Both the position numbers and the translations under genes were made by a program. From assembly GCA_964527185.1 (NCBI GenBank), contig CAZGOI010000001.1, positions 87,166-151,165 on the forward strand: a stretch of DNA of 64,000 nucleotides. Direction: 5' to 3'. This document shows positions 40,525 to 59,987 of the stretch, piece after piece; the stretch's first letter is position 1; the number at the start of each line of letters is the position of its first letter. Below the pieces are notes generated by a model that did no database searches, was not told where the DNA came from, and saw only the letters and a list, made by a program, of their open reading frames with translations. The stretch comes from an uncultured Candidatus Saccharibacteria bacterium (GTDB lineage: Bacteria; Patescibacteriota; Minisyncoccia; Phycocordibacterales; UBA9973).

Positions 40525-40784
40525 TGAATTTTATATATTTTTTTATTTTGTAAAATGTTATTTAGATCACTTAAAATTCCGTCTTTGTGTATTAGGATTT
40601 CGTTTCTAAGCGCTGGCGAACCTTGTATATAAATATCAAATCCTTTGACTTTTATTGACCCTTCGTCTATTTGTATAGTTGTGTGTTTGTTTATAATAAT
40701 AACTATTGTTTTTACTTCTTCTTCTTTTTGAAGAAAAATCTTTTTAAACTTATCTAAAAAATTATCGATTCGATTAAAATCCAT
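40521..40784 (-). CDS. small DUF721-like protein (DciA-like) downstream of dnaN
   Basis: An 87-aa protein in the position DUF721 usually occupies near dnaN, with matching pattern IQIDEGSIKVKGFDIYIQGSPALRNEIL. Confidence 0.35.
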   Translation of the reverse strand: MDFNRIDNFLDKFKKIFLQKEEEVKTIVIIINKHTTIQIDEGSIKVKGFDIYIQGSPALRNEILIHKDGILSDLNNILQNKKIYKIH

Positions 40785-41882
40785 CTATTTATTCATTGGC
40801 ATAACAAGATACATAAACGATTGGTCACCAACGGGTTTTATAATCATTGCTTTATTACCACCAGAGAACTCTAAACTAATACTGTCTTCAGAAATTGATT
40901 GGAAGCAATCTAATATATACTTGTAATTAAAATTAGCTATAACCACTTCGCCAGATAGAGCGCCAGAAACAAATGTGCTATTTTCTCCTATATCAGTATT
41001 TTTCGATTCTATTTCAAAAAATTTTTCTTGTGGTCTTACCGAGAGTGAGATTTGGTTGAATTTATCAGAAAAAATATTTGATATTTTTAGGGAGGATAGT
41101 AGGTCTTGTTTTAAAACAATAGCTTTTGTTGTTGGGTTTTTGGGAATTATCTGTTTATAGTCTGGGAAGGATCCATCTATAATTCTTGAGGTTAGATATA
41201 TACTATCTGTGGTTATAGATATTTGGCTTTTTTGAATAGTGAGTTTTATATCTTCATCTAGTGTTTCAAGTATTTTTATAATTTCTATACTGTTTTTAAA
41301 TGGTAGTAAAATATTTGAAAATGATAGTTTTTGTTTTATTTTTATTTTTTTCTCAGCCAACCTAAAAGAGTCTGTGGCCACAAAAACAAGCATGTCTTCG
41401 TCTGGATATATATTTATACTACCGATTTCTGGTTTTATTTCAGAAGTAGACGAGCTGTAGTAGACAGATTTTAACCCTTCAAGTAGTTTTTTACTTGGGA
41501 TTGATACTGTTTCCCCTTTAATTATTGGAATTGTTGGGAAATCTTCATATGGAACACTTTTAAGAAGTATTGTGTTGTGTTTGGTTTTTACCGATAAATT
41601 ATTGTTTATAGATTCAAAATAAACATTTCCATCATTTGAAATTTGGGAAAATAGCGACGATAGCACGTCTCCTCGAATAGCCATGACGCCACTTTTTTCT
41701 ATTTTAGCAGGCACAGTAACTTCTATACCGATACTTAGATTGGTTGATCGTAGTTTTAGGTTTTTATCATTAACCACCCAAAGTATAGATCCTAAAACTG
41801 GGAGAGTTAGGTTTCTACCAGTTAACCTCTCAACTAATATCAGTGCATTTTTTATTTTACTAACTTGGCATTCTAATTTCAT
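40785..41882 (-). CDS. dnaN: DNA polymerase III beta sliding clamp
   Basis: MKLECQVSKIKNALILVERLTGRNLTLPVLGSILW, with a three-domain length of 365 aa. Confidence 0.85.
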   Translation of the reverse strand: MKLECQVSKIKNALILVERLTGRNLTLPVLGSILWVVNDKNLKLRSTNLSIGIEVTVPAKIEKSGVMAIRGDVLSSLFSQISNDGNVYFESINNNLSVKTKHNTILLKSVPYEDFPTIPIIKGETVSIPSKKLLEGLKSVYYSSSTSEIKPEIGSINIYPDEDMLVFVATDSFRLAEKKIKIKQKLSFSNILLPFKNSIEIIKILETLDEDIKLTIQKSQISITTDSIYLTSRIIDGSFPDYKQIIPKNPTTKAIVLKQDLLSSLKISNIFSDKFNQISLSVRPQEKFFEIESKNTDIGENSTFVSGALSGEVVIANFNYKYILDCFQSISEDSISLEFSGGNKAMIIKPVGDQSFMYLVMPMNK

Positions 41883-42087
41883 ACTATTCTAATTAATTAC
41901 TTATATAAATCTATTATTAATATTATATCTGTTGATATGTTGATTGTCTTAATTAATCATATATATAAAGCTATTTTCAGATAATCCCATCTAACAACCC
42001 ACCCCTAATTGTTAATTATTTTATATAACTTAAAAATCTTGTAATTTTTCCACACTAATTAAAAAATTAAACACTCTTTATTCACAA
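41883..42087. promoter_or_regulatory. candidate oriC in the AT-rich dnaA-dnaN intergenic spacer
   Basis: A spacer more than 80% A+T. It contains DnaA-box-like 9-mers TTTTCCACA and TTATTCACA, each one mismatch from TTATCCACA, and long A/T tracts suited to unwinding. Confidence 0.4.
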
Positions 42088-43437
42088 CTATTTAAACATC
42101 ACCCTAATCTTTTCTATCTCTTGTAATAACGACGGATCTGTTTTTAAATCATCTTTGATTTTTAAATGAGAGTGAATTACTGTTGTATGGTCTCGTCCAC
42201 CAAGTTTTTGCCCTATAAGTGGGTAAGAAATACTAAAATCCTCTCTCAATATATACATGGCCACCTGTCGCGCACGAACAATTTCCTTCCTTCTTGTTTT
42301 TTCATAAATAACATCCTCTGAAATTCCATATTGGTCAGCAATTATTTTTACAATATCTTTTATGGCTACTGTTTTCTTTGGTTTAATATTGTTTTTAATC
42401 AAAGTTTTAACCTCGTTTAATGTTAAAACCCTATTCTTTAACTGAGATTGATATATAACAATATTTAAACTACCCTCGAGCTCCCTTATATTTCCTTCTA
42501 ATGATTCTGCTAAATAAGCGATAACCTCTGGTTCTATTATGCAATTTGTAGATTCAAATTTAGCTTTTATAATAGCAATTCTTGATTCATAATCTGGCTC
42601 AACAACCTGCACAATCATACCGGAAGAAAACCTCGATTGCAATCGTTCTTCTAACCCCTGAATAAAGTTTGGGTGTTTATCAGAAGAAAAAACTATTTGT
42701 TTATTACTCTCATATAGGGTATTGAAAAGATGAAACAATTCTTCTTGTGTTTTATCTTTTCCAGAAATAAATTGAATGTCGTCCATGATAATTACATCAT
42801 ATTTTCTATATTTTTCTTTAAATGAATTTGGGTTTTTATTTTGAATCGAGTTTATATAGTCGACTGCAAACTTTTCAAGACTAACATAGTAAACTTTTTT
42901 ACTAGAGTGTTTGGTTTTTATTGTGTTACCAATCGCTTGTATTATGTGTGTTTTACCAAGACCAGTGCCACCATATATAAAAAATGGATTATAATTTTGC
43001 CCGGGATTATTAACAACCGCTTGAGCAACAGCATATGCAAGCTCATTAAATGGTCCAACAACAAAAGAGTTAAAAGTGTATCTAGGGTTTAAATTATCAT
43101 CTTTATTTATATATAAATCAGAAAGCGGCAATTCTTTATTTACAGAAACAACTTGTTTTACCACTTCAACACGACCCTTATCTATATTTTCATGCTTTGA
43201 AATTATATATTCTATTCCACGAACACTATCTTCGTGGGAAATAATAGTTTTTAATATTAATTTATGGAATTTATTATACAGCCAATCCTTTACGAATTCA
43301 TTTGGCACTCCGACATAAAGTGTGCCAGAATCCTCCTTAACTATATAAGTATTTCTAAACCAAGTAGAGAAATTAGCCTTAGAAATACTGAGTTCTATCT
43401 CAGCAAGACAGTTATCCCACAACTCCTTAGTATTCAT
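42088..43437 (-). CDS. dnaA: chromosomal replication initiator DnaA
   Basis: AAA+ Walker A GGTGLGKTHIIQAIGN, Walker B VIIMDDIQF, and the C-terminal DNA-binding helix-turn-helix (VAMYILRE). Confidence 0.9.
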   Translation of the reverse strand: MNTKELWDNCLAEIELSISKANFSTWFRNTYIVKEDSGTLYVGVPNEFVKDWLYNKFHKLILKTIISHEDSVRGIEYIISKHENIDKGRVEVVKQVVSVNKELPLSDLYINKDDNLNPRYTFNSFVVGPFNELAYAVAQAVVNNPGQNYNPFFIYGGTGLGKTHIIQAIGNTIKTKHSSKKVYYVSLEKFAVDYINSIQNKNPNSFKEKYRKYDVIIMDDIQFISGKDKTQEELFHLFNTLYESNKQIVFSSDKHPNFIQGLEERLQSRFSSGMIVQVVEPDYESRIAIIKAKFESTNCIIEPEVIAYLAESLEGNIRELEGSLNIVIYQSQLKNRVLTLNEVKTLIKNNIKPKKTVAIKDIVKIIADQYGISEDVIYEKTRRKEIVRARQVAMYILREDFSISYPLIGQKLGGRDHTTVIHSHLKIKDDLKTDPSLLQEIEKIRVMFK

Positions 43438-43569
43438 AGTGCGTATTATACTCTCTTTTATAAAACGACCAACAATAAAAAACCTTGATTAACCTGTTAA
43501 TAATATGTGTATATCTAAACCACCACAAACTCTATTGCCTAAGCTATAAATTTAGTATATATTTTCTTT

Positions 43570-43710
43570 ATGTCTAGAACATATAAACCCAATAAAAGAA
43601 AGAGAGCAAAAACTCACGGGTTTCTTGCTCGTTCAAAAAAAGTTGGTGGACGCAATGTTACCCAAGCTCGCCGACGCAAGGGTCGCAAAAAAGTTTCTAT
43701 AAGAAAATAA
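43570..43710 (+). CDS. rpmH: 50S ribosomal protein L34
   Basis: [46 protein letters not shown]. It falls below the ORF-track cutoff and sits in the classic rpmH-rnpA position. Confidence 0.85.
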
Positions 43711-43711
43711 C

Positions 43712-44026
43712 ATGCTTCCAAAAGGAAAGCGTATAGAAAAAGATCTATTTCAAAAAACAACAAACTCCAACAAGGTTATATCGACCCCGCTTTTTGTTTT
43801 TAAATTTATAAAAAACAACAAACCAAAATATTCTTTTGTGGCGCCAAAAGCGATTTTTAAACTTGCGACAAAAAGAAATAAATTTAAAAGAATCGGCTAT
43901 AACACCCTAAGAAATGAAAGGTTACCAAGCTATACCGGTATTTTTATTTTTAAAAAATCAACCCTAACATCAAACAAAAAAGATATCGAATTAAGTATTG
44001 TAGAAATAATAAAGAAATTGAGATGA
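43712..44026 (+). CDS. rnpA: RNase P protein component
   Basis: A small basic protein directly after rpmH with the conserved RnpA pattern (LPKGKRIEKD..FKR). Confidence 0.8.
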   Translation: MLPKGKRIEKDLFQKTTNSNKVISTPLFVFKFIKNNKPKYSFVAPKAIFKLATKRNKFKRIGYNTLRNERLPSYTGIFIFKKSTLTSNKKDIELSIVEIIKKLR

Positions 44027-44235
44027 GTATGAAAAAAGCAGTGTTATGGCTCATAAACATATACCAGAAAATCCCAACTCGATCACACTCATCCTGTGTT
44101 TTCATCCCAACCTGCTCTGAATACACTAAAGAGGCGATAAAAAAACACGGCTTAATTAATGGTATAGCAGAAGGATTTTTGCGGATTTGTAGGTGTCACC
44201 CATGGCAAAAAAACCACTACGACCCAATATTATAA
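44023..44235 (+). CDS. yidD: membrane protein insertion efficiency factor YidD
   Basis: YQK.P......C.F.PTCSEY...AI...G...G......RICRCHPW. It overlaps rnpA by 4 nt. Confidence 0.75.
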   Translation: MSMKKAVLWLINIYQKIPTRSHSSCVFIPTCSEYTKEAIKKHGLINGIAEGFLRICRCHPWQKNHYDPIL

Positions 44236-44276
44236 GGGTATTTTGGATTTAGGGTATTTTAAGTTACAATGGGTGG

Positions 44277-45005
44277 ATGCACGCGCTCTGGAACACACTT
44301 CTATATCAGCCGATATACAACTGTCTAATTTTTATCATAAAATACATAACCTTTGGTGATGTTGGTTTTGGAATTATAATCCTTACAATTTTTATAAAAT
44401 TTATCTTATTTCCACTTACTAAGAGATCGATCAAAAGTCAGATACTCATGAAGCGTCTTGAACCAGAACTCAAGCAAATTAAAAAAGATTTTCCAAACAA
44501 AGAAGAACAAGCTAAAAAAACATTTGAACTATATAAAAAATATGGGACCAGCCCGTTTTCTGGCTGTTTGGTGGTTTTATTACAACTTCCAGTTATTTTT
44601 GCACTCTACTATGTTTTTTACAGGGGTATAACACTTAGCACTGGCCCACTCTACCCGTTCTTACAAGCCCCAAGTAATTTACATACCATGTTTCTTGGGG
44701 CTATAGATGTCCATACCAAAAGCATCACCCTTGCATTTCTAGCGGGGTTGTCACAATTTATACAGGGTTACTTAGCCTCCCCTATTAAAAATAAAAAAGA
44801 AAAAAATAGCACCGAGCAAAAAACATTTCAAGAACAGATGGCTGATAGTATGCAAATGAATGTAAAATATTTTTTGCCGATATTTGTGGCCTTGATTGCA
44901 TATAGAATATCGGCCGCGGTTGCATTATATTGGATTACCAGTAATATATTTACTATCGCTCAAGAGTGGTATATAAGAAAAAAATTAGCTCAAAACCCTA
45001 TATAA
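44277..45005 (+). CDS. yidC: YidC/Oxa1-family membrane insertase (short form)
   Basis: Five transmembrane segments, with a conserved transmembrane-1 region (ILTIFIKFILFPLTKRS) and C-terminal region (ALYWITSNIF). Confidence 0.8.
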   Translation: MHALWNTLLYQPIYNCLIFIIKYITFGDVGFGIIILTIFIKFILFPLTKRSIKSQILMKRLEPELKQIKKDFPNKEEQAKKTFELYKKYGTSPFSGCLVVLLQLPVIFALYYVFYRGITLSTGPLYPFLQAPSNLHTMFLGAIDVHTKSITLAFLAGLSQFIQGYLASPIKNKKEKNSTEQKTFQEQMADSMQMNVKYFLPIFVALIAYRISAAVALYWITSNIFTIAQEWYIRKKLAQNPI

Positions 45006-45009
45006 ATAT

Positions 45010-45483
45010 ATGCAAGACAAGGTAAAAAAAACAATTGAAGAGATGTTTTCACGCACAGCATCTGAAATAACCAAGATTGAATTTTCTAATGAAGGAGGAA
45101 TGCTCTGGTGTCTAATTGAAACCCCAGATTCAAGATTTATGATTGGCAAAGATGGTGAAACACTGAGATCTATAAACCACCTTGTCCAAAAGATAATTGA
45201 AAAAGATCTCCCAACAGAGGATAGCACAGTAAAAATTCTTGTTGATATTAATGGCTATCAAAAGAAAAGATTTGATAATCTAAAAAATATTGCCCATATG
45301 ATGGCTGAGCGAGCAAGATATTTCAAAAGCAATATCGAAGTCGACCCAATGCCGGCATATGAAAGACGCATCGTTCACATGTTTCTAGAAGGCGCCCCAG
45401 ATATAAAAACAGAATCGGAAGGCGAAGGGCAAAATCGCCGAGTGGTTATAAAATACATTAACCCAAGCGAAAAAATTATTTGA
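45010..45483 (+). CDS. Jag/KhpB-like RNA-binding protein (KH plus R3H domains)
   Basis: It lies downstream of yidC and has the R3H motif (RRIVHMFLEGAPDIKTESEGEG). Confidence 0.75.
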   Translation: MQDKVKKTIEEMFSRTASEITKIEFSNEGGMLWCLIETPDSRFMIGKDGETLRSINHLVQKIIEKDLPTEDSTVKILVDINGYQKKRFDNLKNIAHMMAERARYFKSNIEVDPMPAYERRIVHMFLEGAPDIKTESEGEGQNRRVVIKYINPSEKII

Positions 45484-46795
45484 GATCTAGGCTCCATAGA
45501 GTGGAGTCTTTTTTATTTATGAAAAATAAAGAACTCTCGTCTTTATTTAAGAAAAGATTTGTCGCGTCAACCGCTGTTTCATCTAAAGAATCAGCTACCT
45601 GGTTTATGACACCATCTTTTGTGTTTATTTTTATAAAATGATCATCGAAAGACACCAAACCTTGATACCAAATATCCGGATAGCCACCATTTGTCATTGA
45701 ATTTGGAACCGCGCAATAGATATTTATATTATCACTACTCCAAATACACTTTTCTGGCAAGCTGTAAATATTTAAACTCTGGTTTGTATGACTTGAGATA
45801 TTGAATAATTCCAAGGTCGAACTTATGCCATCTGAAGAATTATATAAAACAAGAGACCCATCGCCATTTGCAAGCGTTGTCAGACCATCTACCCCACCAA
45901 AAACCTTTGTCACTACGTCATTTGCACTATTTAAAACAAATAAACTTCCTTGTGTTTGGGCAGATGGTTTGGTTGTAAGAAATATTTTTCCTGTGGAAGC
46001 CCACTGTGACAGCCACTCAGAATACGACGAGTTAAATAATTGCGAAACTTTTGCATCACTAAACGATCTTGTGCTACCAACTATTCCATTTACTGTTTTT
46101 ATTAAATAGAAAAATTTTGTTTTGTCAGGCGATATGCTCAAATCCTCAATATTATTTGGCAAAAATTCACCCTTTTGTTTACCCAAGCTTGCCATATAGC
46201 TCGTTATAGTTTTGTTGTCATCTGCCAAATATCTATATATCACAGTCTGAGCTTTTCCATCCCAAGTTGCATCGTGAACGCCTGGAATAGTTGAATTTGA
46301 TATCTCACCCTCTGTTTTATTGTCTAGATACATTTCATATATATGTCCAGTCGCCCGCTCGACATACCGCAACGCTGGCACGACTTCAACTTTTGGAACT
46401 AGAGCTTTTTTAGTCGCGGCCTTTTTACCATTCACTATAGCCGTGTTGTCGACGACAGGCCCAGATTGCGCTATCGGTCGAGTTTCGTCAAAATATACTG
46501 CTCCAGCAACTGCAAAATTAGTTATCGGGTGGAATTTTGTTACAGTGGTAGAAGATGTATCTCCTGTTTGTGTTTGACCCCCAGTACTATTATTTGCATT
46601 GTTCACACTATTGCCATTAGTTTGATTTGTATTTTGAGAATTATTATTACCAAAAGGGTTGAAAGAATTGTAACCACTAGTAGAAGAATTATTATTGCTC
46701 ACACCGCCTGATTTATTAGAATAGTAATAATAAAATATTACACCCACAACGATTATAAATACTACTATAAAAATGATTAATCTTTTTTTAAACAT
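45476..46795 (-). CDS. membrane-anchored hypothetical protein with an N/S/T/Q-rich linker and a beta-rich C-terminal domain
   Basis: An N-terminal transmembrane segment (LIIFIVVFIIVVGVIFYYYY) and a low-complexity linker. It is the last gene of the T4SS-like block. Confidence 0.4.
   Translation of the reverse strand: MFKKRLIIFIVVFIIVVGVIFYYYYSNKSGGVSNNNSSTSGYNSFNPFGNNNSQNTNQTNGNSVNNANNSTGGQTQTGDTSSTTVTKFHPITNFAVAGAVYFDETRPIAQSGPVVDNTAIVNGKKAATKKALVPKVEVVPALRYVERATGHIYEMYLDNKTEGEISNSTIPGVHDATWDGKAQTVIYRYLADDNKTITSYMASLGKQKGEFLPNNIEDLSISPDKTKFFYLIKTVNGIVGSTRSFSDAKVSQLFNSSYSEWLSQWASTGKIFLTTKPSAQTQGSLFVLNSANDVVTKVFGGVDGLTTLANGDGSLVLYNSSDGISSTLELFNISSHTNQSLNIYSLPEKCIWSSDNINIYCAVPNSMTNGGYPDIWYQGLVSFDDHFIKINTKDGVINQVADSLDETAVDATNLFLNKDESSLFFINKKDSTLWSLDLK
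45489..45519 (+). terminator. rho-independent terminator after jag
   Basis: ggctccatagagtggagtc hairpin followed by ttttttattt. Confidence 0.5.
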
Positions 46796-46808: not shown

Positions 46809-47963
46809 TTAAAGCGCTGAACGCAAATAATTTACAGCTTCGACACCCTCCCCAGGTCTATCATCTAATTGCCTATGACAATATATATCAGATTTTGTTA
46901 TGTTTGGAAAAATCGATTGAAGCCTTTTTATTAATTTAACCAATGAATCTTTCTGGGGTTGTGTTAATGTTTGCCAATTATTATTTTTATCAGCCCGCAA
47001 TACCATCTCTATGCCAAGTGTATTACTATTAGAAAAACCAGCTGGAGCTTTGACTGGTGTAATATCAACAGGCGTTAGGCTAACTTGATTTAAATGAGTA
47101 TAGCTAAAATGATTAGCCCTCATATTTATTCTAACGACTTGCCAAACACTCCCATCTCTATCAATAATAAAATGAGCACCATTATCATTACAAGTAGCAC
47201 TACCATTATCTGTATGATTTTTACCACACAGTGCTTTACTAGGTGTGTCTGTGTTGTGGTCTATCCATGTGTACAAAGAATCTTGGGCTCTATAACCCTC
47301 GGTTCCGTGTATAACTATGGCTTTTACATCCTGTAAACCTGGCTTTTCAACGACATTAGTTATTTTATTTACTATCCAATTATCGGTAAGCACCCCTGAA
47401 CCAGATGTTTTTCCAACCTCAACATTAAATTTATTATCTGAAGCTGTGCTCATAATTTGATTAATTTGATTGCTAGTTAATGGTACTGGACTACTTTCAG
47501 CTACATCTTGATCTATATCTACACTCACCTGATCAATCGTCAGCCCATTTTGGCCTGTTAAGTCTGGATTTATTGTATATAGCAATGCATATGCGCCGAG
47601 GGCTATGAAAAGCCCAAGTATAGCAGCAAATATTCTTCCCTTAGCTTCCGTTTTTCCAAAAACAGACTCGGTTCCCATGTACTGCACCCCGCCGATGACG
47701 ATCATTATGACAGCCAGAACCCCACAGAGGCCTATCGCTACCAAAAATATTTTATTAAAATAATCCCCTATGCTATTAGTTTGAACAGTTGTCCCGAGCC
47801 CAGGGATTGGCGCAAGTAGTGTATAGCTATTTAAATCTGTACTCGGGCTCGCTCCAGGGCTTAATGGCACAGTTTTATCTCCATCTCCAGCTAAAACAAC
47901 CAATGGCAATAATAAGATTAGAAGTATCAAGCTCGGAATTAAATTTTCTATGAATTTCTTCAT
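46809..47963 (-). CDS. T4SS-pilin-like (VirB2/TrbC-like) N-terminal module fused to an N-acetylmuramoyl-L-alanine amidase (amidase_2/PGRP) domain
   Basis: A signal peptide, then YTLLAPIPGLGTT..NSIGDYFNKIFLVAIGLCGVLAVIMIVIGGVQYM..RIFAAILGLFIALGAYALLYTINPDL (two transmembrane segments, pilin-like). The C-terminal region HGTEGYRAQDSLYTWIDH..NGAHFIIDRDG..CHRQLDD carries zinc-amidase His, His and Cys ligands. Confidence 0.5.
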   Translation of the reverse strand: MKKFIENLIPSLILLILLLPLVVLAGDGDKTVPLSPGASPSTDLNSYTLLAPIPGLGTTVQTNSIGDYFNKIFLVAIGLCGVLAVIMIVIGGVQYMGTESVFGKTEAKGRIFAAILGLFIALGAYALLYTINPDLTGQNGLTIDQVSVDIDQDVAESSPVPLTSNQINQIMSTASDNKFNVEVGKTSGSGVLTDNWIVNKITNVVEKPGLQDVKAIVIHGTEGYRAQDSLYTWIDHNTDTPSKALCGKNHTDNGSATCNDNGAHFIIDRDGSVWQVVRINMRANHFSYTHLNQVSLTPVDITPVKAPAGFSNSNTLGIEMVLRADKNNNWQTLTQPQKDSLVKLIKRLQSIFPNITKSDIYCHRQLDDRPGEGVEAVNYLRSAL

Positions 47964-47968
47964 TTTAT

Positions 47969-48964
47969 TTATAAAGACAATTTAATTTGTGCGCTGGCTG
48001 TTTGGAAAAAAGCATTTAAATTTTCTAATACTAAACTAATGGTTGCATAACCACCGCGAGAAGTCGGCTGAACAGTCAATTCGGTTTTTTTAGTCGGGGT
48101 GTCTATATCCTCGCCATTTATTTGCCATTTGTAACTAAAATCCTTTTCATTTCCAGAGATAGCTAGGAAGTAGGGTTCGGCCACAATTGTAATTTCATTT
48201 TCACTCAGAAATGTATTGTCGGTTAAAGCGTTGTTGTATAACACACCCTCGGTCGGCGATTTTTTATAGAAAAGAATTTTTGGGCTGGTTATAGGTATGC
48301 TGATTTCTTTTGTTGTGTCATAGCCGCCATTTACTGTTGAGGCATTAACCGAAATATTTTCACTTTTATTAAGCTCACTATTTGCAAATATATAAGAATC
48401 TTTATTATATCCTGAAGCATCTTGCACAGAGTTGTCGGAATTTTTCCAATTATAAACTGCGTTTACCCTCCCGCCCTTGGTTGTTGTCGGCATTGCTACA
48501 GCTTTTATGACGCCACCACTTGAGATAAACGATTTGCCTTTATAAAAAGGCGGAGTATATGAATCAACTCCTTCCCAAAATATTTCTATTTCCGATGGGT
48601 TAATTCTTATCTCCTTGGTTATTTTATCGAGCGATCCCTCTGGTGTGATTGTCGCTGTAATGTCAGAAACGACATTTGGCCCAAGGGTTTTAAACGAATA
48701 ACTGATTTTACCAATACCCGAGAGCACCACCTTGTTACCACTTTGCCAGACTATCATTGCTTTGTTTAAATCCGTAGCATAGCTTGACAGGGTTGCTGTT
48801 ACGTCCTGATACGGCTCTGGGCTATCAGGGACAGTTGCTATATCGACGTCGCTATCTTGTAGGACAACGTCAGACAACGCCATAGATATTTTAGGCAGAC
48901 AAACTATGGCCAAAATAAAAATTAGAGAAAATAAGATTTTTTTGTGAGAAGCTACCACAACCAT
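47969..48964 (-). CDS. secreted hypothetical protein
   Basis: Signal peptide (ILFSLIFILAIVCLPKISMALS) and a beta-rich sequence, located inside the T4SS-like block. Confidence 0.4.
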   Translation of the reverse strand: MVVVASHKKILFSLIFILAIVCLPKISMALSDVVLQDSDVDIATVPDSPEPYQDVTATLSSYATDLNKAMIVWQSGNKVVLSGIGKISYSFKTLGPNVVSDITATITPEGSLDKITKEIRINPSEIEIFWEGVDSYTPPFYKGKSFISSGGVIKAVAMPTTTKGGRVNAVYNWKNSDNSVQDASGYNKDSYIFANSELNKSENISVNASTVNGGYDTTKEISIPITSPKILFYKKSPTEGVLYNNALTDNTFLSENEITIVAEPYFLAISGNEKDFSYKWQINGEDIDTPTKKTELTVQPTSRGGYATISLVLENLNAFFQTASAQIKLSL

Positions 48965-48999: not shown

Positions 49000-50856
49000 T
49001 TATTTCTGGGCTTGGGTTACTTGGCTACTTTCTTGTGCCACCAGGTCGTCTTTTGCTTTCTTGATTGCCAATATTTGAGATGGATCAGAGGTTATTATCT
49101 GGTCTTCGGTATATGAGGCGATAGTTTTAACTGCTACATGCTTTAACCCAGCAAAGAATATTCCCTCGCCGACATTTGCCTCGAGCAACAAATATTTTTC
49201 CTCATCGGTTAAGTTAAAAGTTTTCTGCAGGACATCGACAGTCGAAGGCGACTGCTTTAATAGTAGCTGGATAGAAGAGTTTGTAACAATCGGCACACCA
49301 TAGGGGCTGCGCATAAAGTCACCCACGTCTTGGGTGATGGTTGCAAGACCGAGGTAGTATTTGCGCCCGCGCTTGGCTATCGAATAGAGAAATGATGCCG
49401 TATCTTCTGATTTCATCATCCACCAAGCCTCGTCTACCACGAGCAATCTCTTTTTAATATTTTTTCGAATTGCGTTCCAGATATAATGCGTGACGATATA
49501 CATAGCAACTGGTTTGAGTTCGTCTTCCATGTCTCGCACTGAGAAAACAACAAATTTTCTATTGATATCGACATTCGAAGGCTGGTCGAGGAACGATGCC
49601 CACGAACCATGAGTGAATTTTGCCAAACGTTGAATCAGCGATGCGCTGCCTTCCATGCCAGCCAAGACCATTTCGAAATCAGTCAGAAGCGGTGGCTCTA
49701 TATTTCTAAAATCAGATTCAGCCGTGATGTCTTTGAGCGCATATGTTTCGGTGATCGCTCGATCGATAATAGAGTCTTCTTCTGGTGTTAGGCCGCCAAG
49801 CATAATTCTGAAAAGACCCACGAGGTTTATAGTATTTGCGCGCAAAACATCGGCTGGTGTTTCATCTGAAGCAGGGATTGGCAAGTCGAACGGGTTGATA
49901 TGGTGATCTGAAGAAAGAGAAATATTAAAATATCTGCCACCGACAGCCTCTGAAAGGTATTCGTATTCTCGCTCTGGGTCTATGACGATGACCTCGGTGT
50001 CAAACATGAGCGTGCGAATGATTTCGAGTTTTGTCGCGTAAGATTTACCGGCGCCAGAAGTTGCGAACGTTATCGAGTTGTAATTTGGAAGTGAGAATCT
50101 GTCAAATATTATAAGGCTAGAATTGTGGCGGTTGACCCCATAGAGAATCCCTTTATCTGAGGTCAGATCAAATGAAACAAATGGAAAAAGACTCGAAAGA
50201 GGCTCGGTATTTAATTTTTGATGTATTCCGAGCAAGTCTGTGTCAAGCGGAATGATGCTCTTAAACGCCTCTACTTGCTGAAAAAGCGCTGGCTTTAAGT
50301 AAATTAATTTTGACTCAAGGAGCGATTTAATCTCATTTTCAATTTTAAACAAATCTCCCTCGCTGTCTGCGTAGATAGTGATGTATAGACCAACATCAAA
50401 CATTTTTTCTTGAGCCTGCATTAGATTGTCGCGCAAATCTTCTAGATCTTTATATGCTGTATCGAGCATTGGGTCACGGACAAGACCTTTTGACTCGCGG
50501 ATAGATATCTGGCTCTGAACCTCGGCGACTTTTTTCTGAAATGATCGCAATATATCTGCGGTATCGATCGGGTGAATAAAAATAGACACATCGAAAACCT
50601 TGTCGAGGTTTATTATTGGCGAAAACCAATTGTCGGTTAGATATCTTGGGTATGATATGACAAAAAAAGTTCTAGCGATTTTGTCGCCGAGATTTAGCCC
50701 TTTTGGTGTAATCTGTAGGGCCGATGGTGCGATGATGTCTTGCAGCTCGAGCGTCGCCGCCTTGTATATCTCAGACGGAATAACTGGCATCACAAGTTTA
50801 CTTTTTGATTTATCTACCGTGCTACCACCACCAAAAATTTTTGAAAATACGCTCAT
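49000..50856 (-). CDS. VirB4/TraC/PrgJ-family type IV secretion ATPase (ATPase domain)
   Basis: Walker A TSGAGKSYAT and Walker B LLVVDEAWWMM, with the conserved C-terminal region (GLATITQDVGDF). The VirB4 N-terminal domain is missing from this ORF. Confidence 0.75.
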   Translation of the reverse strand: MSVFSKIFGGGSTVDKSKSKLVMPVIPSEIYKAATLELQDIIAPSALQITPKGLNLGDKIARTFFVISYPRYLTDNWFSPIINLDKVFDVSIFIHPIDTADILRSFQKKVAEVQSQISIRESKGLVRDPMLDTAYKDLEDLRDNLMQAQEKMFDVGLYITIYADSEGDLFKIENEIKSLLESKLIYLKPALFQQVEAFKSIIPLDTDLLGIHQKLNTEPLSSLFPFVSFDLTSDKGILYGVNRHNSSLIIFDRFSLPNYNSITFATSGAGKSYATKLEIIRTLMFDTEVIVIDPEREYEYLSEAVGGRYFNISLSSDHHINPFDLPIPASDETPADVLRANTINLVGLFRIMLGGLTPEEDSIIDRAITETYALKDITAESDFRNIEPPLLTDFEMVLAGMEGSASLIQRLAKFTHGSWASFLDQPSNVDINRKFVVFSVRDMEDELKPVAMYIVTHYIWNAIRKNIKKRLLVVDEAWWMMKSEDTASFLYSIAKRGRKYYLGLATITQDVGDFMRSPYGVPIVTNSSIQLLLKQSPSTVDVLQKTFNLTDEEKYLLLEANVGEGIFFAGLKHVAVKTIASYTEDQIITSDPSQILAIKKAKDDLVAQESSQVTQAQK

Positions 50857-50859
50857 ATA

Positions 50860-51513
50860 TTATTCTAATTTTATGCCTTGGCTAATGTCGCCCGGGTTAA
50901 ATGTCTTGTAGAAAAGTTCGACAATTTCTTCAGTATTTAATTGGGTGCTGCGAATACCTAGACCTCCTAGCCCAGAAGTAATAACCCCGACACGTTGATC
51001 TAGCTGACTGCGCTTTTCTTCAAAGTCCGCCATATCCATGGATTTTTTTGTATTTGCGATCATTTGCTTTTCGGCTTTGCCGCCTAAAATCTTGTCGACC
51101 ACACCCTCAGTTGCCTTGATCGCGGTTGGGCTATACGGGACGACAACAAAAAAAGTTTTTGTCATGATATTCACTTGGTCGGTAAAAGATTTTATGAAAT
51201 CTATATACTCTCTCGTTTGGATTTTTAGCAATTTTTCATTCTGCTCTTTTTCTCGAGCTTCTAGAGTCAAGAGGTATGGCCTGATATCGAGACGGCGGGA
51301 TTGCACAACAATCTGAGTTGAAAAATCTAGCCCATTTAGAAAAGATTGAAACTGGCTGATAACAGCCTCTTGTTCCTCGCTTGATTTAAGCGACAAGTTA
51401 ATAGATGAAGCGATTAAAACAGCCCGAAGCCCGCCATCTTTGAGTACTATGACGCCATTGCGGATCTCTTTTATTGGCACAAATTCTTGCGCAGCCCGAG
51501 CGTTTAAAGCCAT
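50860..51513 (-). CDS. VirB4 N-terminal domain encoded as a separate ORF (split VirB4)
   Basis: EFVPIKEIRNGVIVLKDGGLRAVL matches the start of Gram-positive VirB4 homologues such as PrgJ and TcpF. It ends 3 nt before the ATPase ORF, in a different frame. Confidence 0.5.
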   Translation of the reverse strand: MALNARAAQEFVPIKEIRNGVIVLKDGGLRAVLIASSINLSLKSSEEQEAVISQFQSFLNGLDFSTQIVVQSRRLDIRPYLLTLEAREKEQNEKLLKIQTREYIDFIKSFTDQVNIMTKTFFVVVPYSPTAIKATEGVVDKILGGKAEKQMIANTKKSMDMADFEEKRSQLDQRVGVITSGLGGLGIRSTQLNTEEIVELFYKTFNPGDISQGIKLE

Positions 51514-51530
51514 TTAAATATTATATCACA

Positions 51531-51944
51531 CTAAATATTCTCTTTCTCTTGTATGTCTAAGCTCCAAGCCAGATCTTTGAGCGAACTTTTTGGCGCAGTA
51601 ACCGGCAAAACAGAAATTTGCCCTGCTTCGGCCTCCTCGCCTGATTTTTTATCAGATGGTTTTACTAGGCGTTGTTTCCAGACATAGAGTTTACTTGAAA
51701 TCAAGTAATTTATTCCAGCTTGCAAGTAGTAGATGAAAGGTTTGTTGTTTATCTTGTAAAAAACTAAAAGGGCGGTGAGTATGCCGACGGGGATTATGAT
51801 TAGAATTGCGATCCAAAACGGCAATAAACTATAGATAACATAGATCATACCCGCCCCACCAACCATATAGACAAATTGTCGGAAAGTGAAAGGCCCAAAG
51901 AGCTTGTCTTCGACATCGATAAACTGTGGGACTCTAAATTGCAT
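51531..51944 (-). CDS. PrgI/VirB3-like small T4SS membrane protein
   Basis: VPQFIDVEDKLFGPFTFRQFVYMVGGAGMIYVIYSLLPFWIAILIIIPVGI has the typical PrgI N-terminal motif and two transmembrane segments. It lies immediately upstream of VirB4. Confidence 0.5.
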   Translation of the reverse strand: MQFRVPQFIDVEDKLFGPFTFRQFVYMVGGAGMIYVIYSLLPFWIAILIIIPVGILTALLVFYKINNKPFIYYLQAGINYLISSKLYVWKQRLVKPSDKKSGEEAEAGQISVLPVTAPKSSLKDLAWSLDIQEKENI

Positions 51945-51962
51945 AATATTATTCTAACACAA

Positions 51963-53024
51963 CTATTCTATAGATTCCCTGTATGGGTCGCTTGATTTTG
52001 GGGTCTGTGTTGCAGCGGGCGGAGGAGTTGCCGGCGCGGTAGGAGAACTGACTTTTGGAGTTGAATGGTCGCTCGCAACTTGCTTGCTTGCCGTCGGCGC
52101 AGTCAACTTGCTCTTTATTATGTCGTGCATTAGATCGCCTGAATCTTCTTTACCATCATCAACCATTTCAATTCCTGTCTGTTTATAAATATTTTGTTCT
52201 AGTGTTGTTGGCGCCGGTGCAGATCTTACCCCAACTTCTTCTTTTTGAGGCATAGGGGTAACTACAGTAGCAGGCTTAATTTCGCCACCACTCATGTTCT
52301 GCAGATACGGAGGAATCGGGACTTCATCTTCATGTGCACTGCTCTTGGTTCCATCTCTATTACCCCAGTGAGTTTTTAAAATCTCCCTAATATTTTTCAA
52401 AATATTCTCATTTACTGAATCAACCAACTCGTTTACAGTTTCATCGGGCAAAGAAATTTTTGCCTTAAGTTCCGTCACGTATTTATCTGGGTGAATTATT
52501 CCAAGCAAGACTTTATTTGTCACCTCCTCAAAGACACCCATCTGCTCTATGGAAATTTTTTTACTCTCGGCGATATTGTACAGTTTCGACTGGTAGTTAG
52601 ATTCTACTATTGCATCTTGGACTTCTTTCGGTAATTTTGAAAATCTTTCATCTAGTTTATTTACATCTCCGTATTTTTCTTCTATCAAGTTCTGAACATT
52701 TGAAACAAATGTTTTCTCTAGATCTGGCCTAATATTTTTTAATATATTTTCATTTATCTCAACTACTATTTTATCAACAACATCTTTTGGCATATTCAAC
52801 TCACTAATCAAATTAGATTCATAATCTTCTGGGTGAACGATACCAAGAAGAACCAAGGTTGTTTCTGTGCCAAGATTTTCTATTTGTGTATCTTTCAAGC
52901 CATATCGCACACCTATACTTCGTAAAGTTTCCAGCCAAGACATACTTGAAAATGCCTGTTGAACGCTGCTCGGAAGTTTTGAATAATATAAAGCTATTTG
53001 TTGTTGTAATTGTGTTTTATCCAT
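51963..53024 (-). CDS. hypothetical protein with an internal tandem duplication of a ~55-aa domain and a Pro/Thr/Ala-rich C-terminus
   Basis: Repeat 1 is GTETTLVLLGIVHPEDYESNLISELNMPKDVVDKIVVEINENILKNIRPDL. Repeat 2 is GVFEEVTNKVLLGIIHPDKYVTELKAKISLPDETVNELVDSVNENILKNIREIL. Confidence 0.4.
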   Translation of the reverse strand: MDKTQLQQQIALYYSKLPSSVQQAFSSMSWLETLRSIGVRYGLKDTQIENLGTETTLVLLGIVHPEDYESNLISELNMPKDVVDKIVVEINENILKNIRPDLEKTFVSNVQNLIEEKYGDVNKLDERFSKLPKEVQDAIVESNYQSKLYNIAESKKISIEQMGVFEEVTNKVLLGIIHPDKYVTELKAKISLPDETVNELVDSVNENILKNIREILKTHWGNRDGTKSSAHEDEVPIPPYLQNMSGGEIKPATVVTPMPQKEEVGVRSAPAPTTLEQNIYKQTGIEMVDDGKEDSGDLMHDIIKSKLTAPTASKQVASDHSTPKVSSPTAPATPPPAATQTPKSSDPYRESIE

Positions 53025-53036
53025 AATAATTATTTT

Positions 53037-55814
53037 TTAATGATGCCCTCCTCCACTTGCCTTACCGCTCCCACTACTATTATGATCTACTTTGACATCA
53101 ACATTTATTGATTTTAAGGAGTCACTAAGTATGCCACTCAAATCTTTAAAGAAATCTTTTTGTGCTGTTCCATGGTCGATGCCACTTAAACCACTCTTAA
53201 GCCCTTTTTTAATTGCACTTGATGCACTAGCGGCCATCGCAAGACCAAATACTGGTAGGATTCCTCCCATCCCCGCCATCGCAAGACCACCAGCCGTTAA
53301 CCAGCCACTTGGTTTGGTTTTAGCAAGTTCGCGTATGTCGTAACTACCTTTTCTTAATGATCTCACGAATTCACCAACAGCAGTACCTGCTTCTAAGGCC
53401 GCCTTCATATCTCCTGCAGTATGAATATACTCACCTCTCGTAGCTGCGTTACCTCGAGCAATTTCAGCTGCATGAGCAAAATTACCACTTGGATCAGCTG
53501 TAAATATTCCAGTTGCTGCATCATAATAACCCTTCATTCCATCAACAATTCCTCTTTGTGCAACATCGAGTTTTTCATAAACTTTGTTAAAGGTGTCCTT
53601 TGAATATATATCTCGATCAATTCTATCTTGTGCTAATTGTTTTTGGTCATCAGTAAGATCCTTATAGGTTGAATCATCCTTGCCAGTAATTTTTTGCGCA
53701 GACTGGTTTAATTCGTGTTCTGCATGAGCTTTATCATCAACACCCATTTCCCTTCTTTGGAACCAATTTGTTGTTTTACCAGTAATAGGGTCTGTTTTTT
53801 GTCCTACTTTATTAAATCCTGCCGCTATTCCTGCCATACTAGCTTTGCCTGTACTGGTAACAGCCTTTCTGGCGAGATTTAAGTATGCAAATGGATTAAT
53901 GATATTCGCACCCCTTATTTTACTTGCAGCATCTCTGACATCTTGAAATCGTAAAGCATTTTTTCTTGCTCCATCATTTTGCGTATACTTCGCAACTGCC
54001 CCAACTGTTTGTCTTCCAGTAAATGCAGTAGTCAATGCAGCCCCACCAATAGCCAAGCCTCCGCCAACAACCGCCGCTTTTGTAACTGCGCTACCAACAT
54101 AACCAGCAAATTCCACTGCTAACCTTTTAGCCATATTCAGAAGTATGATGATGAATGCAAATGGCACAATAATTGAGATTATTAGGTCTAAACCACTTCG
54201 ACCGCTTATATCTAGGAATGAAGACGAACATTCGGTTACACTAGGATCGCAAGCATTTGTTCCCAAAAATGCTATTATTAGGTACATAAAGAAGATGAAA
54301 ATTGGAGCCAAGAATGCAAATTTAAAAAGATTTGGCCACCACTTCTTCCACCCAATCATGTTGACATTTTGTATTACTGGCACTGCGTAAGAAAAGAATG
54401 CAAATGGCGCAAATATCATAGTAAGCCAGAGCCCAATAACCCGCGAGACAAATATCAAACCAACAGTAAAAAAGACAAATAGCCCCACAATATTAGTAAC
54501 ACTTGCAAGAATTGTTACTAATATAAATGTCCAAGTATCTATACCCTTAGTATTAGTAGTCGAAGCACCAGCTTGCCCTCCCGTATCTCTGGCAACATTA
54601 CCAACTTTGGCAGCATCTAGGATTAACCTCTGGGGATTTACCTTTTTGACGATAGCAACTGAAAGCGGAATTACGCCATTGTTGTCATTTGAATTATTAT
54701 TTGTTTGATTTGTTTGCTGCCCCGTCGCCGATTTATTTGGTAATGTATTTACTATAATAGAACTTGAATTATAAAAAACCCTGGCCAAAATATTTGAAGT
54801 ATCTATGATAACCTGCGTCGCGAAAAGACTGAAGTTTATTAAAAGACCAATGATAACAACATTGATGATCATTTCTTTGGTTTTAAATCCATGAATCCGC
54901 AGGATCGTCGAAAAAGCAATGTATAAAAGGACGAATATGAAAAACATATTCACAAAATCCTTGACTATTTTCCAACCTTGCAAAACAAAAGCGCTACGAT
55001 ATGATGTATCTGTTATAGAATACTTGAAAGTAAAATCAAAAAACTTACCGGCAATCCCAAACAATGCAGATGTTGGAACAAAGAAGAGCGAGTATATCAC
55101 TTGAGCTATACACCCCGGAACACTGATAAAACCATTTGTGAACCCAAGCCAACACGACGGCATATAGCCGTCTTGGCCTATCGATCTAGAAATTGGTTGT
55201 GTATTTTTCGAGTTATCAATAGTTTTTCCAGTATCAGCTGTTGTGACTGGAATATTTGTCTGTAGAACTGTCCCATCGGCTGTAGTACCACTAAATCCAA
55301 AATAACTGACATAATAAGTTTTGTTTGCAATTAAATTATTTTGTATAGTAACTGGTTTTTGAACAGGTGTACCATCATCTTTTAATGCCAAGCCACTAGT
55401 AAAATAATTTTGATCCAAAAAATGAGTATTTGCTGGTACGGAAAATAATTTTGTATAATCAAGTTTAGGATAACCCCCACTACCCTCAAGAAGTTTTGTA
55501 AGACGTTGTGCCCCTATTTCAGTATATAGTTCATTTAAACCTGCATTACTCATAGAAACTTGGTTGTCTGTAACGATGTAAAACAACCCATGATTCTCTG
55601 TAGTCGTGTACCTGGTTACATCAAATCTTATATCAATAGAATGGTCTGTAGAACTCAACCAATAAAGACTCAAATCAAAATCCCCAGCCTCTGCTACAGA
55701 TTTTTGAACGACCGGTGTGCTGTCTTTGATATCTAAGCTAAACGGTACAAACAAGTTTGCAAAGATGAGGGCTATTAGAACTGGTGGTAGAATTTTTTTA
55801 ATCATTTTTACCAA
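53037..55814 (-). CDS. 925-aa polytopic membrane protein, VirB6/TrbL-like candidate
   Basis: A signal peptide and large N-terminal ectodomain. At least six transmembrane segments mid-protein (..FAPFAFFSYAVPVIQN.. resembles the VirB6 conserved region). A ~400-aa Ala/Gly/Lys-rich C-terminal domain. Confidence 0.4.
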   Translation of the reverse strand: MVKMIKKILPPVLIALIFANLFVPFSLDIKDSTPVVQKSVAEAGDFDLSLYWLSSTDHSIDIRFDVTRYTTTENHGLFYIVTDNQVSMSNAGLNELYTEIGAQRLTKLLEGSGGYPKLDYTKLFSVPANTHFLDQNYFTSGLALKDDGTPVQKPVTIQNNLIANKTYYVSYFGFSGTTADGTVLQTNIPVTTADTGKTIDNSKNTQPISRSIGQDGYMPSCWLGFTNGFISVPGCIAQVIYSLFFVPTSALFGIAGKFFDFTFKYSITDTSYRSAFVLQGWKIVKDFVNMFFIFVLLYIAFSTILRIHGFKTKEMIINVVIIGLLINFSLFATQVIIDTSNILARVFYNSSSIIVNTLPNKSATGQQTNQTNNNSNDNNGVIPLSVAIVKKVNPQRLILDAAKVGNVARDTGGQAGASTTNTKGIDTWTFILVTILASVTNIVGLFVFFTVGLIFVSRVIGLWLTMIFAPFAFFSYAVPVIQNVNMIGWKKWWPNLFKFAFLAPIFIFFMYLIIAFLGTNACDPSVTECSSSFLDISGRSGLDLIISIIVPFAFIIILLNMAKRLAVEFAGYVGSAVTKAAVVGGGLAIGGAALTTAFTGRQTVGAVAKYTQNDGARKNALRFQDVRDAASKIRGANIINPFAYLNLARKAVTSTGKASMAGIAAGFNKVGQKTDPITGKTTNWFQRREMGVDDKAHAEHELNQSAQKITGKDDSTYKDLTDDQKQLAQDRIDRDIYSKDTFNKVYEKLDVAQRGIVDGMKGYYDAATGIFTADPSGNFAHAAEIARGNAATRGEYIHTAGDMKAALEAGTAVGEFVRSLRKGSYDIRELAKTKPSGWLTAGGLAMAGMGGILPVFGLAMAASASSAIKKGLKSGLSGIDHGTAQKDFFKDLSGILSDSLKSINVDVKVDHNSSGSGKASGGGHH

Positions 55815-56656: not shown

Positions 56657-56659
56657 AGA

Positions 56660-58576: not shown

Positions 58577-58588
58577 ATTATATCATTT

Positions 58589-59479: not shown

Positions 59480-59480
59480 A

Positions 59481-59987
59481 CTATTGTCCTATTTGTAAAC
59501 TTTGATTTGTGCTAACGCCATAATTATCTGTTGTTTTAAAAACTGGTATTGGTATTTGGGCGGGGCCAGCTGTGATGTAACAAGTTTTTAGATCTGGTAT
59601 TAATTTTTCATTGCCAAGAATTTGTTTACCTGGAATTGGCACCTTGCGCGGATTTGTTGTGTACGTAGGTATCATTTTATATATACCAGCAGCTATCCTA
59701 ATAGCCTTTGATTTTGATGGAGCACTAGCTGCGGACTTGGCTATGTCAATTAAACCAGATATGTTGCTAGTCAATAACGTACTTTTACCAATACCTGTGC
59801 ATTTTATAAAAGGAATGGGAGCTAAAATTATTGTTCCACCAAAAGATTTTAAAAGTGGAGAGCTAGCCCTGACCGTACCAGATAGTGTTACAGCCCAAGT
59901 TTCTCTGGTGAAAAGCAAAAAAAAGACTAAAATCAAAAGAGAAAATGATATTTTTGAATAATTACTAGTCACACCATGATTATACAA
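59481..59987 (-). CDS. small secreted hypothetical protein carrying a LAPIP motif (possible pilin-like subunit)
   Basis: An N-terminal hydrophobic segment. TIILAPIPFIKCTG echoes the LLAPIPGLGTT motif of the pilin-like protein at 46809..47963. Confidence 0.35.
   Translation of the reverse strand: MYNHGVTSNYSKISFSLLILVFFLLFTRETWAVTLSGTVRASSPLLKSFGGTIILAPIPFIKCTGIGKSTLLTSNISGLIDIAKSAASAPSKSKAIRIAAGIYKMIPTYTTNPRKVPIPGKQILGNEKLIPDLKTCYITAGPAQIPIPVFKTTDNYGVSTNQSLQIGQ

Follow-up and report, generated by a model that had tools for sequence, protein, structure and literature searches.

A VirB2-like membrane hairpin fused to exchangeable peptidoglycan enzymes in the chromosomal type IV secretion operon of Paceibacteria

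The type IV secretion systems (T4SSs) of ordinary Gram-positive bacteria have no VirB2 pilin at all, the Patescibacteria being the known exception (PMC12102498, PMC12857230). In the latter the T4SS is chromosomal, comes without recognisable conjugation proteins and proved essential in a Saccharibacterium, the single species in which this has been tested (PMC10633639, PMC11665869, PMC12857230), and an oriC-adjacent, relaxase-less, monoderm-type system has been described for them (PMC12102498). Gram-positive T4SSs require a peptidoglycan hydrolase, and most VirB2-bearing Patescibacteria have no recognised VirB1; in Paceibacteria, unlike in the other classes, the VirB1 homologues that are recognised cluster with virB4, and pilus biogenesis, in the conclusion of the same survey, seems able to do without VirB1 (PMC12102498). 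The VirB2-like pilins of Patescibacteria, the hydrolases of Gram-positive T4SSs and the Amidase_2 enzymes are already known. Here we describe a gene of a 64,000-nucleotide (nt) stretch of DNA (the window) that codes for a pilin-like hairpin and an Amidase_2 domain in a single protein of 384 amino acids (aa), within a same-strand chromosomal T4SS operon that is itself oriC-adjacent and of the monoderm type. In a Paceibacteria clade the hairpin is conserved, and the protein has been replaced wholesale on either side of it, in its N-terminal domain and in the peptidoglycan enzyme at its C-terminus. Coordinates (Table 1) are positions in the window, aa numbers refer to the fusion protein, and loci of relatives are designated L001 onward.

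The closest described proteins are the small VirB2-like pilins of Patescibacteria (PF18895; Quinonero-Coronel et al. 2025, PMC12102498; Wang et al. 2023, PMC10633639). The fusion protein resembles them in Pfam family, signal peptide and two hydrophobic helices, and in its neighbours (virB4, prgI, a split N-terminal part of VirB4, all near dnaA, rnpA and ksgA), which match the survey of Paceibacteria (PMC12102498). The published pilins are small and often form divergent tandem arrays, whereas here a single conserved hairpin bears a wall-enzyme domain of 160–250 aa and usually an N-terminal domain too. No description of a pilin-enzyme fusion or of such double-cassette variability was found in the literature searched (non-exhaustively), including the text of PMC12102498, and the supplementary tables of that paper that were consulted hold no mention of VanY, Amidase_2 or T4SS_pilin. 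Public records name the hairpin-enzyme proteins by their C-terminal domain only, e.g., “D-alanyl-D-alanine carboxypeptidase family protein”, and their membership in a T4SS is therefore hidden.

The fusion gene is one uninterrupted open reading frame (ORF) with an ATG start and no internal stop, and an in-frame stop precedes the ATG by only six codons. The initial annotation of this DNA had proposed a single-gene fusion with exactly these limits, joining an N-terminal pilin-like module with two transmembrane (TM) segments to a C-terminal amidase_2 domain, and in this it proved correct: both domains were recognised, each with a match far beyond chance, the fusion is conserved in relatives, and none of the outcomes named as refuting it was seen. 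That two genes have been merged by a frameshift was considered and can be dismissed almost entirely: the ORF is continuous, an identical protein is present in an NCBI assembly and also in one built independently from a read set, and pilin-amidase fusions of this kind were seen in independent samples and make up 14 clusters at 50% identity.

A homologue search returned 309 proteins; the length figures come from the 120 listed, of which 116 were scanned with Pfam. The hairpin is 55–74% identical among the homologues while their C-terminal domains differ. At least 158 aa lie beyond the hairpin in 118 of the 120 (median 175), and the N-terminal extension, in some TIG/Ig-like, has a median of 154 aa and a range of 7–325. 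T4SS_pilin was matched by 99 of the 116 full-length relatives, VanY by 58, NlpC/P60 by 11, YkuD and TIG by nine each, Amidase_2 by seven, SLT by five, and SLT_2, SLT_3 and Peptidase_M15_4 by one each. The gene order was identical around six relatives with five types of C-terminal domain, i.e., Amidase_2 (two loci), YkuD, VanY, SLT and NlpC/P60, and the differences therefore sit at an orthologous slot. In all eight loci whose gene order was read (L001–L008) the fusion gene lies between VirB4 and the last gene of the operon, and its counterparts in L001 and L003 each form one ORF as well.

We have also scanned one genome per species, which gave 240 matching stretches, and the 80 loci retrieved from these all belong to Paceibacteria-, Nomurabacteria- or Parcubacteria-type metagenome-assembled genomes. 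Many of the loci are titled “uncultured Candidatus Saccharibacteria bacterium” (TPA), and they group with the Paceibacteria/Nomurabacteria loci, with a VirB4 identity of at least 70% in every pair; such record titles look generic rather than taxonomic. The hairpin module and a full-length VirB4 were found together in 75 of 89 loci. The 80 species-level loci contain 83 hairpin genes, and in 79 of them the C-terminal domain was long enough to be classified; the other four comprise two cut by contig ends, one broken by masked sequence and one without enzyme (L080). Clustering resolved about 15 classes of C-terminal domain (single linkage by BLAST fused VanY with YkuD, and dedicated hidden Markov models split them). 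All the recognisable ones are peptidoglycan enzymes: VanY, NlpC/P60, YkuD, SLT types, Amidase_2, 3D and CHAP. About seven further types were not recognised. Among the representatives of classes left without label, 3D and CHAP were clear, SLT-type families were marginal (E 0.02–0.06) and five matched nothing in Pfam at E≤0.1, two of these five showing LAS-metallopeptidase-like H..D / HxH motifs by eye. Three loci contain tandem hairpin-enzyme pairs with different enzymes, and in L035 and L042 the unit formed by the fusion gene and a downstream gene of ~455 aa appears duplicated. By their domain content, such pairs would unite a glycan cutter with a peptide cutter (e.g., 3D with CHAP), mirroring the bifunctional hydrolases of Gram-positive T4SSs.

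The replacement is best appreciated against the conservation of the surrounding genes. Over 64 non-redundant loci the mean pairwise identity was 85% for VirB4 and 60% for the hairpin, and the locus with the most similar VirB4 shared the class of C-terminal domain in just 10 of the 64 cases. L031 and L023 are 99.1% identical in VirB4 and 97.8% in the hairpin, yet one carries VanY and the other YkuD. At the DNA level their flanking genes are 93–97% identical, a similarity that reaches ~20 nt into the fusion gene; the N-terminal region has no detectable similarity, the hairpin is 92.6% identical, the C-terminal domain is again without detectable similarity, and from the stop codon onward the identity is back at 97%. 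In nine more pairs, including those of the window with L011, L014 and L007, the flanks and the hairpin align and the C-terminal domain does not. The N-terminal region was also unalignable in eight of these nine, the exception being L015/L006, where the alignment is unbroken from the upstream genes through the hairpin. Compared with its orthologues, the window is 91–94% identical in VirB4, 66–76% in PrgI and 42–66% in the two neighbouring genes (the range for operon proteins other than VirB4 is 35–84%). Only the hairpin (~100–130 aa) of the fusion protein aligns with the relatives, except for the amidase-type L001, which is 35% identical to it overall. The conserved hairpin and the conserved flanking genes could act as homology arms for the exchange of cassettes, and the sharp limits of the cassettes would follow from recombination between them. 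A tblastn search of the 64-kb window, made with all C-terminal classes, recovered no silent or donor cassette.

The pattern resembles that of polymorphic toxins (Rhs/YD, CdiA, evolved VgrG/PAAR) and of the antibacterial T4SS wall-degrading effectors of Xanthomonas, in which a conserved delivery module ends in a junction motif and carries exchangeable, unrelated C-terminal domains that are quickly replaced between close relatives; the amidase subfamily found in the window also caps Rhs proteins. There are also differences. No downstream gene that co-varies with the enzyme, as an immunity gene would, was found when we looked for one, the downstream gene being orthologous across types of C-terminal domain; the N-terminal region is variable too; and what is conserved is a membrane hairpin lying mid-protein instead of an N-terminal trafficking domain.

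Membership of the hairpin in the T4SS_pilin family was assessed in several ways. PF18895 scored 24.9 bits on the whole protein (aa 63–128), below the cut-off of 26.6, and 28.9 bits (E=1.2e-6) on the module alone (aa 42–146). All of 20 related modules matched both PF18895 (best 5e-9) and TrbC/VirB2 PF04956 (best 1e-4), and NCBIfam gave a weak match to a “pilin-like conjugal transfer protein” family of Mycoplasma. Residues Y47, L50, A51, P52, Y68, V85, M96, S100, G117, L118, A121, L128, T130 and P133 are invariant in the hairpin. As in the family, the protein has a signal peptide and then two hydrophobic helices with a short basic loop between them, its two ends being placed outside, and the gene stands on the same strand alongside virB4/virB3-type genes (VirB4 at 364 bits and PrgI). 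What sets the protein apart from a small mature pilin made of the hairpin only are the 244 aa that trail it. No pilin was recovered from the PDB, either by a sequence search with the full protein (no match), by a profile search with the hairpin (whose sole match was a spurious designed protein) or by Foldseek of the full model, which recovered the amidase fold. A second pilin-like ORF was sought across the 64-kb window and not found.

Hydropathy analysis marked three spans, aa 3–32, 67–98 and 109–133, the first being the signal-peptide region, modelled as a helix from 2 to 24. The net charge is +1 in the loop between the two membrane helices and −3 and −6 in the outer segments (−6 for aa 132–160), and because the loop is net positive and the outer segments net negative, the hairpin is predicted to cross the membrane twice with its N- and C-terminal ends outside, irrespective of signal-peptide cleavage. 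The amidase domain is thereby placed outside the membrane on an acidic linker of ~55 aa, and the protein is predicted to be exposed extracytoplasmically. An AlphaFold2 model (alignment of 88 sequences, mean predicted local distance difference test, pLDDT, 83.2) contains, in order, a beta-hairpin (46–61), two helices (65–97 and 101–131), a partly disordered linker and a globular C-terminal domain. Within the linker, which is the point where the likeness to non-amidase relatives stops, the blocks covering 141–160 average a pLDDT of 57 and the block holding helix 164–176 averages 92.

The boundary between hairpin and cassette invites another explanation, namely that the protein is a membrane-bound pro-form cleaved near TINPxLxG into a small mature pilin and a free wall hydrolase. 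RP4 TrbC and VirB2 are known to be processed at their C-termini, and the invariant or near-invariant residues after the second helix (T130, P133, L135, G137, G140) mark the end of the similarity between cassettes. A further point in its favour is the natural variant L080, whose N-terminal Ig-like region and hairpin are followed by only 57 aa and no enzyme. We regard this explanation as improbable: no protease gene was identified in the operon, the motif may be a mere helix cap and recombination joint, and a long acidic linker is what would be expected of a tether.

The C-terminal domain matched PF01510 (Amidase_2) with E=2.4e-16 and 60.7 bits (cut-off 26) over aa 211–366. The best Foldseek match of the model was AmpD (2y2b, E=7e-7, target template-modelling score 0.66–0.69), followed by the Ts2631 endolysin, AmpDh3 and T7 lysozyme, and a profile of the seven closest amidase domains retrieved from the PDB AmpDh2 (8e-10), AmpD, AmiD, AmpDh3, T7 lysozyme and XlyA, with E values ranging to 1e-4. 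The domain is mostly modelled with a pLDDT >90, the loops 241–260 and 291–310 being at about 50–70. A word-indexed homologue search with the C-terminal 248 aa recovered the query alone, and an exhaustive profile search was therefore needed; it gave 7964 representatives at E≤1e-3, and the conservation values of Table 1 were counted in the best 150. The histidines that bind zinc in T7 lysozyme (His17 and His122 in the published numbering) are matched in the alignment by His219 and His363, and the catalytic Glu in the IGIE motif of AmpD (Glu116) and of AmpDh2 is matched by Glu319. Glu372 aligns within one residue of the AmpD zinc ligand Asp164, and there is neither Cys nor Asp at the position of the third ligand. 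His, His and Cys had been put forward at first as the ligands; both histidines stand, and the cysteine has to be abandoned, as Cys362, just before His363, is not conserved (relatives show A, N, P, R, T or G). The third ligand is most likely Glu372, as the counterpart of Asp164, and with this His/His/Glu site the putative amidase looks catalytically intact. Compared with AmpD, AmpDh2, AmpDh3 and AmiD (2y2b, 4bj4, 4bxd, 2bh7), the fold is the same and the pair of zinc histidines and the GIE-motif catalytic Glu are conserved, whereas those enzymes are soluble or lipoproteins with Asp or Cys as third ligand, and the window enzyme sits on a membrane hairpin, has a Glu in an E-G motif and is only 14–19% identical to the solved AmpD-type structures. 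A separate peculiarity of the window is a 15-residue insertion in this domain, ALCGKNHTDNGSATC, whose two Cys could form an extracellular disulfide and which falls in a low-confidence region of the model.

The seven closest amidase-bearing relatives share the architecture of the window protein. The next-closest members of the subfamily include the C-terminal tips of Rhs proteins: P0132, P0146, P0155 and P0183 combine DUF6443, RHS_repeat and an Amidase_2 of the same H..E..H..E-G subfamily, and the JGI name of P0128 and P0132 is “RHS repeat-associated protein”. With a loose pattern, motifs like the end of an Rhs core were seen upstream of the amidase in about one fourth of 135 non-pilin relatives, of which ~31 are stand-alone domains. 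Judging from these architectures, the amidase subfamily is used elsewhere as the warhead of polymorphic toxins.

Table 1. Features of the fusion gene, its operon and selected relatives. Key-residue coordinates were verified by translation.
Feature	aa	Coordinates (nt)	Strand	Basis or remark
Whole fusion gene, pilin-like hairpin + Amidase_2 domain	1–384	46809–47963	−	384 aa; stop codon 46809–46811
Signal peptide	1–25	47889–47963	−	MKKFIEN + hydrophobic core, ending VLA|GD; cleavage site judged by eye
Very short N-terminal variable segment	26–44	47832–47888	−	slot up to ~325 aa in relatives
VirB2/T4SS_pilin-like module	45–150	47514–47831	−	profile matches, conserved residues, model, hydropathy
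Y-x-LLAP beta-hairpin	46–61		−	part of pilin-like module
TM helix 1	about 71–93	47685–47753	−	part of pilin-like module
Near-invariant cytoplasmic loop QYMGxESxFGKTEAK	94–110	47634–47684	−	part of pilin-like module
TM helix 2	about 111–131	47571–47633	−	part of pilin-like module
Conserved tail TINPxLxG..G..I.QV	after TM helix 2		−	end of pilin-like module
Acidic linker	151–205	47349–47513	−	one predicted helix, 164–176
AmpD-like Amidase_2 domain	206–384	46812–47348	−	PF01510, Foldseek, PDB profile matches
Window-specific insertion in amidase domain	244–258	47190–47234		15 residues
His219	219	47307–47309	−	conserved 150/150
Thr221	221		−	conserved 150/150
His264	264	47172–47174	−	conserved 143/150
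Glu319	319	47007–47009	−	conserved 150/150
His363	363	46875–46877	−	conserved 149/150
Glu372	372	46848–46850	−	conserved 129/150, remainder mostly gaps at column
dnaN		40785–41882	−	by size + synteny with annotated relatives
dnaA		42088–43437	−	by size + synteny with annotated relatives
rnpA, yidD, yidC, jag		43712–45483	+	beside probable replication origin
Membrane-anchored downstream operon gene		45476–46795	−	439 aa; no PG_binding_1
Secreted Ig-like protein, upstream of fusion gene		47969–48964	−	331 aa; weak aBig_2 match
VirB4 ATPase part		49000–50856	−	NCBIfam VirB4-like CD1110 family, 364 bits, cut-off 325
TrsD/TraC-like VirB4 N-terminal part		50860–51513	−	217 aa; TrsD + VirB4 N-terminal matches
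PrgI/TcpE (VirB3-like) small membrane protein		51531–51944	−	PF12666 40.8 bits, PF12648 31.7 bits
Rest of co-directional operon		51963–59987	−	five proteins without family match + 925-aa polytopic protein
Polytopic membrane protein		53037–55814	−	925 aa; VirB6-like by position only
Tandem pair, L035		8842–12493 of L035		unknown class + NlpC/P60
Tandem pair, L042		6275–9972 of L042		SLT-like + VanY
Tandem pair, L076		5813–7797 of L076		3D + CHAP
Natural enzyme-less variant, L080		8545–9474 of L080		N-terminal Ig-like region + hairpin
PF05635 gene, L006		3521–3871 of L006		23S_rRNA_IVP, four-helix-bundle
PF05635 gene, L008		3507–3857 of L008		23S_rRNA_IVP, four-helix-bundle

The operon is bordered by jag, yidC, yidD and rnpA and then dnaA and dnaN on one side and by ksgA and uvrD on the other, and the G+C content drops to 0.30 near the probable replication origin (window 40000–45500). 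VirB4 is split into two ORFs in the window and in L001–L008, in which the genes of the operon remainder are also present in the same order. The Ig-like gene upstream stops 5 nt before the start codon of the fusion gene; all loci examined have a gene of ~320–355 aa here, and identity between the window protein and its counterparts in L001, L007, L011, L014 and L020 is 54–66%. In the gene downstream, PG_binding_1 (aa 117–176) was found in 24 of 78 orthologues and in none of the seven amidase-type loci, and its presence does not follow the enzyme class overall. The other operon proteins were compared with wall hydrolase families without any match, the fusion protein being the only recognisable wall enzyme of the operon. 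As a difference in gene content, L006 and L008 have a PF05635 gene inside the operon, just upstream of prgI, that is absent from the window.

The position in the operon and the lack of any other recognisable hydrolase there fit, plausibly, a fusion that would bring wall lysis to the secretion machine. As a mechanism we propose that the hairpin docks the protein to the membrane core of the T4SS, where the near-invariant 17-residue cytoplasmic loop would face the very highly conserved VirB4/VirB3, and that the tethered enzyme would cut or remodel the peptidoglycan where the T4SS crosses the wall, in the window at the N-acetylmuramic acid (MurNAc)-L-Ala bond. The fusion protein would so take the place of a hydrolase of the VirB1/PrgK/TraG/CwlT type, which Gram-positive T4SSs require and which is missing from this operon. 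Whether the hairpin does tether an exchangeable wall-cutting enzyme to the T4SS, in place of the absent VirB1/PrgK-type hydrolase, is to our mind evenly balanced, but of the readings considered here it is the one that we prefer.

The Gram-positive hydrolases (PrgK of pCF10, TraG of pIP501, CwlT of ICEBs1, TcpG of pCW3) are similar in having a membrane anchor and an extracytoplasmic enzyme and in being coded in a monoderm T4SS operon, which is also the placement of the fusion gene. Their lytic transglycosylase/lysozyme-like and CHAP or NlpC/P60 domains are not found in the window protein, which has Amidase_2 only; SLT, SLT_2, NlpC/P60, CHAP and 3D do occur in relatives at the same slot, sometimes as glycosidase and peptidase pairs. 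The Gram-positive enzymes have a plain N-terminal anchor and a fixed set of SLT with CHAP/NlpC or LytM, whereas here the enzyme is anchored by a VirB2-like hairpin and its catalytic class varies within the family. The fusion protein belongs to the VirB2-like family by its module and to Amidase_2 by its enzyme; it is not a member of the VirB1/PrgK group by sequence, but probably works like one. The initial annotation had set it against Gram-positive T4SSs with pilin and hydrolase as separate proteins; since ordinary Gram-positive T4SSs have no VirB2 pilin, the comparison is not one of two separate proteins joined. Parallels also exist in Salmonella FlgJ (flagellar rod cap and muramidase) and phage tail lysins, in which a part of the assembly is fused to a wall hydrolase and the wall is opened at the machine. 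These are unrelated proteins of unrelated machines, with a fixed enzyme class and a gene that is not hypervariable.

If the hairpin were a mere anchor, the enzyme could also be a general autolysin with which the cell grows, divides or renews its wall, and its location in the operon would be historical. Reduced genomes have few wall enzymes, PBP1 and a division-related oriC neighbourhood are nearby, and VanY and YkuD are typical housekeeping remodelling enzymes. Against this, the slot is fixed in the eight loci read, the module accompanies a full-length VirB4 in most loci, the anchor is specifically VirB2-like, and a switch of catalytic class between nearly identical genomes is not expected of a housekeeping enzyme, so that we assign very little likelihood to it.

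Several observations also weigh against the role of a tethered T4SS hydrolase. A housekeeping function in assembly is not enough to account for the pace at which cassettes are replaced (the 10 of 64 nearest neighbours alike, and VanY against YkuD at 99.1% VirB4 identity); VanY and YkuD are remodelling enzymes and not hole-cutters; the use of the same amidase subfamily as the toxic tip of Rhs proteins points to the wall of another cell; and the label “pilin-like” itself rests on weak profile matches (E about 1e-6), while the structure searches could not separate the hairpin from any other helical hairpin. That both flanks of the hairpin are hypervariable and that the amidase is one of ~15 C-terminal domains suggests more than a simple targeting fusion.

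The main rival reading is that of a host-directed protein, comparable to evolved VgrG/PAAR spikes or to phage tail lysins. The T4SS would extract the hairpin and polymerise it into a pilus or conduit or place it at its tip; the adhesin-like N-terminal domain and the wall enzyme, displayed outward because pilins of the VirB2 family have their two termini at the surface of the pilus, would act on the wall of a host or partner as determinants of host range or of an arms race. We hold this tentatively, as a rather unlikely account, and with similar reserve the more specific, somewhat doubtful idea that the hairpin is a true pilin turned display scaffold, building or capping an extracellular structure that carries an exchangeable adhesin and a wall-breaching enzyme toward the host. 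Both exposed regions are replaced between genomes otherwise 93–97% identical in DNA, the type of C-terminal domain is nearly uncorrelated with the phylogeny of VirB4, the amidase subfamily recurs at the tip of Rhs/DUF6443 polymorphic toxins, and the fusion gene is the only VirB2-like gene at the locus. Known effectors that target the wall moreover use this repertoire of domains (amidase, NlpC/P60, YkuD, VanY/M15, SLT). In Saccharibacteria, epibiotic growth depends on the T4SS and its pilins, which are essential for it (PMC10633639, PMC12857230), and in parasitic Paceibacteria the genes for proteins with a T4SS pilin domain rank with the most strongly expressed (PMC10936435). On the other hand, no immunity-like gene varies with the enzyme, the identity returning at the stop codon, and 25–60 kDa of extra domains for each subunit with a core of ~10 kDa would be sterically demanding. 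Archaea, moreover, are not known to have peptidoglycan. Methanogenic archaea are the hosts of the cultured Paceibacteria of PMC10936435, and a pilus has not been shown for any Patescibacteria T4SS (PMC12857230).

The two exposed parts of this protein are hypervariable within a very conserved machine, and it is therefore likely to be an interface with the wall, with the host or with phages. A pilin-like protein that itself bears the wall enzyme, in a large clade of Paceibacteria, would resolve the apparent lack of a hydrolase in these systems if the enzyme indeed serves the T4SS. If the hairpin instead proved to be a display scaffold, recombined cassettes would decide which host envelope an ultra-small epibiont opens, and such an “evolved pilin” would be a class of T4SS component not described before and a molecular lead on the function of the T4SS in Patescibacteria. 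The results offer handles that can be tested, i.e., the specificity of the enzyme in relation to the type of host wall, cleavage at the junction and display at the surface.

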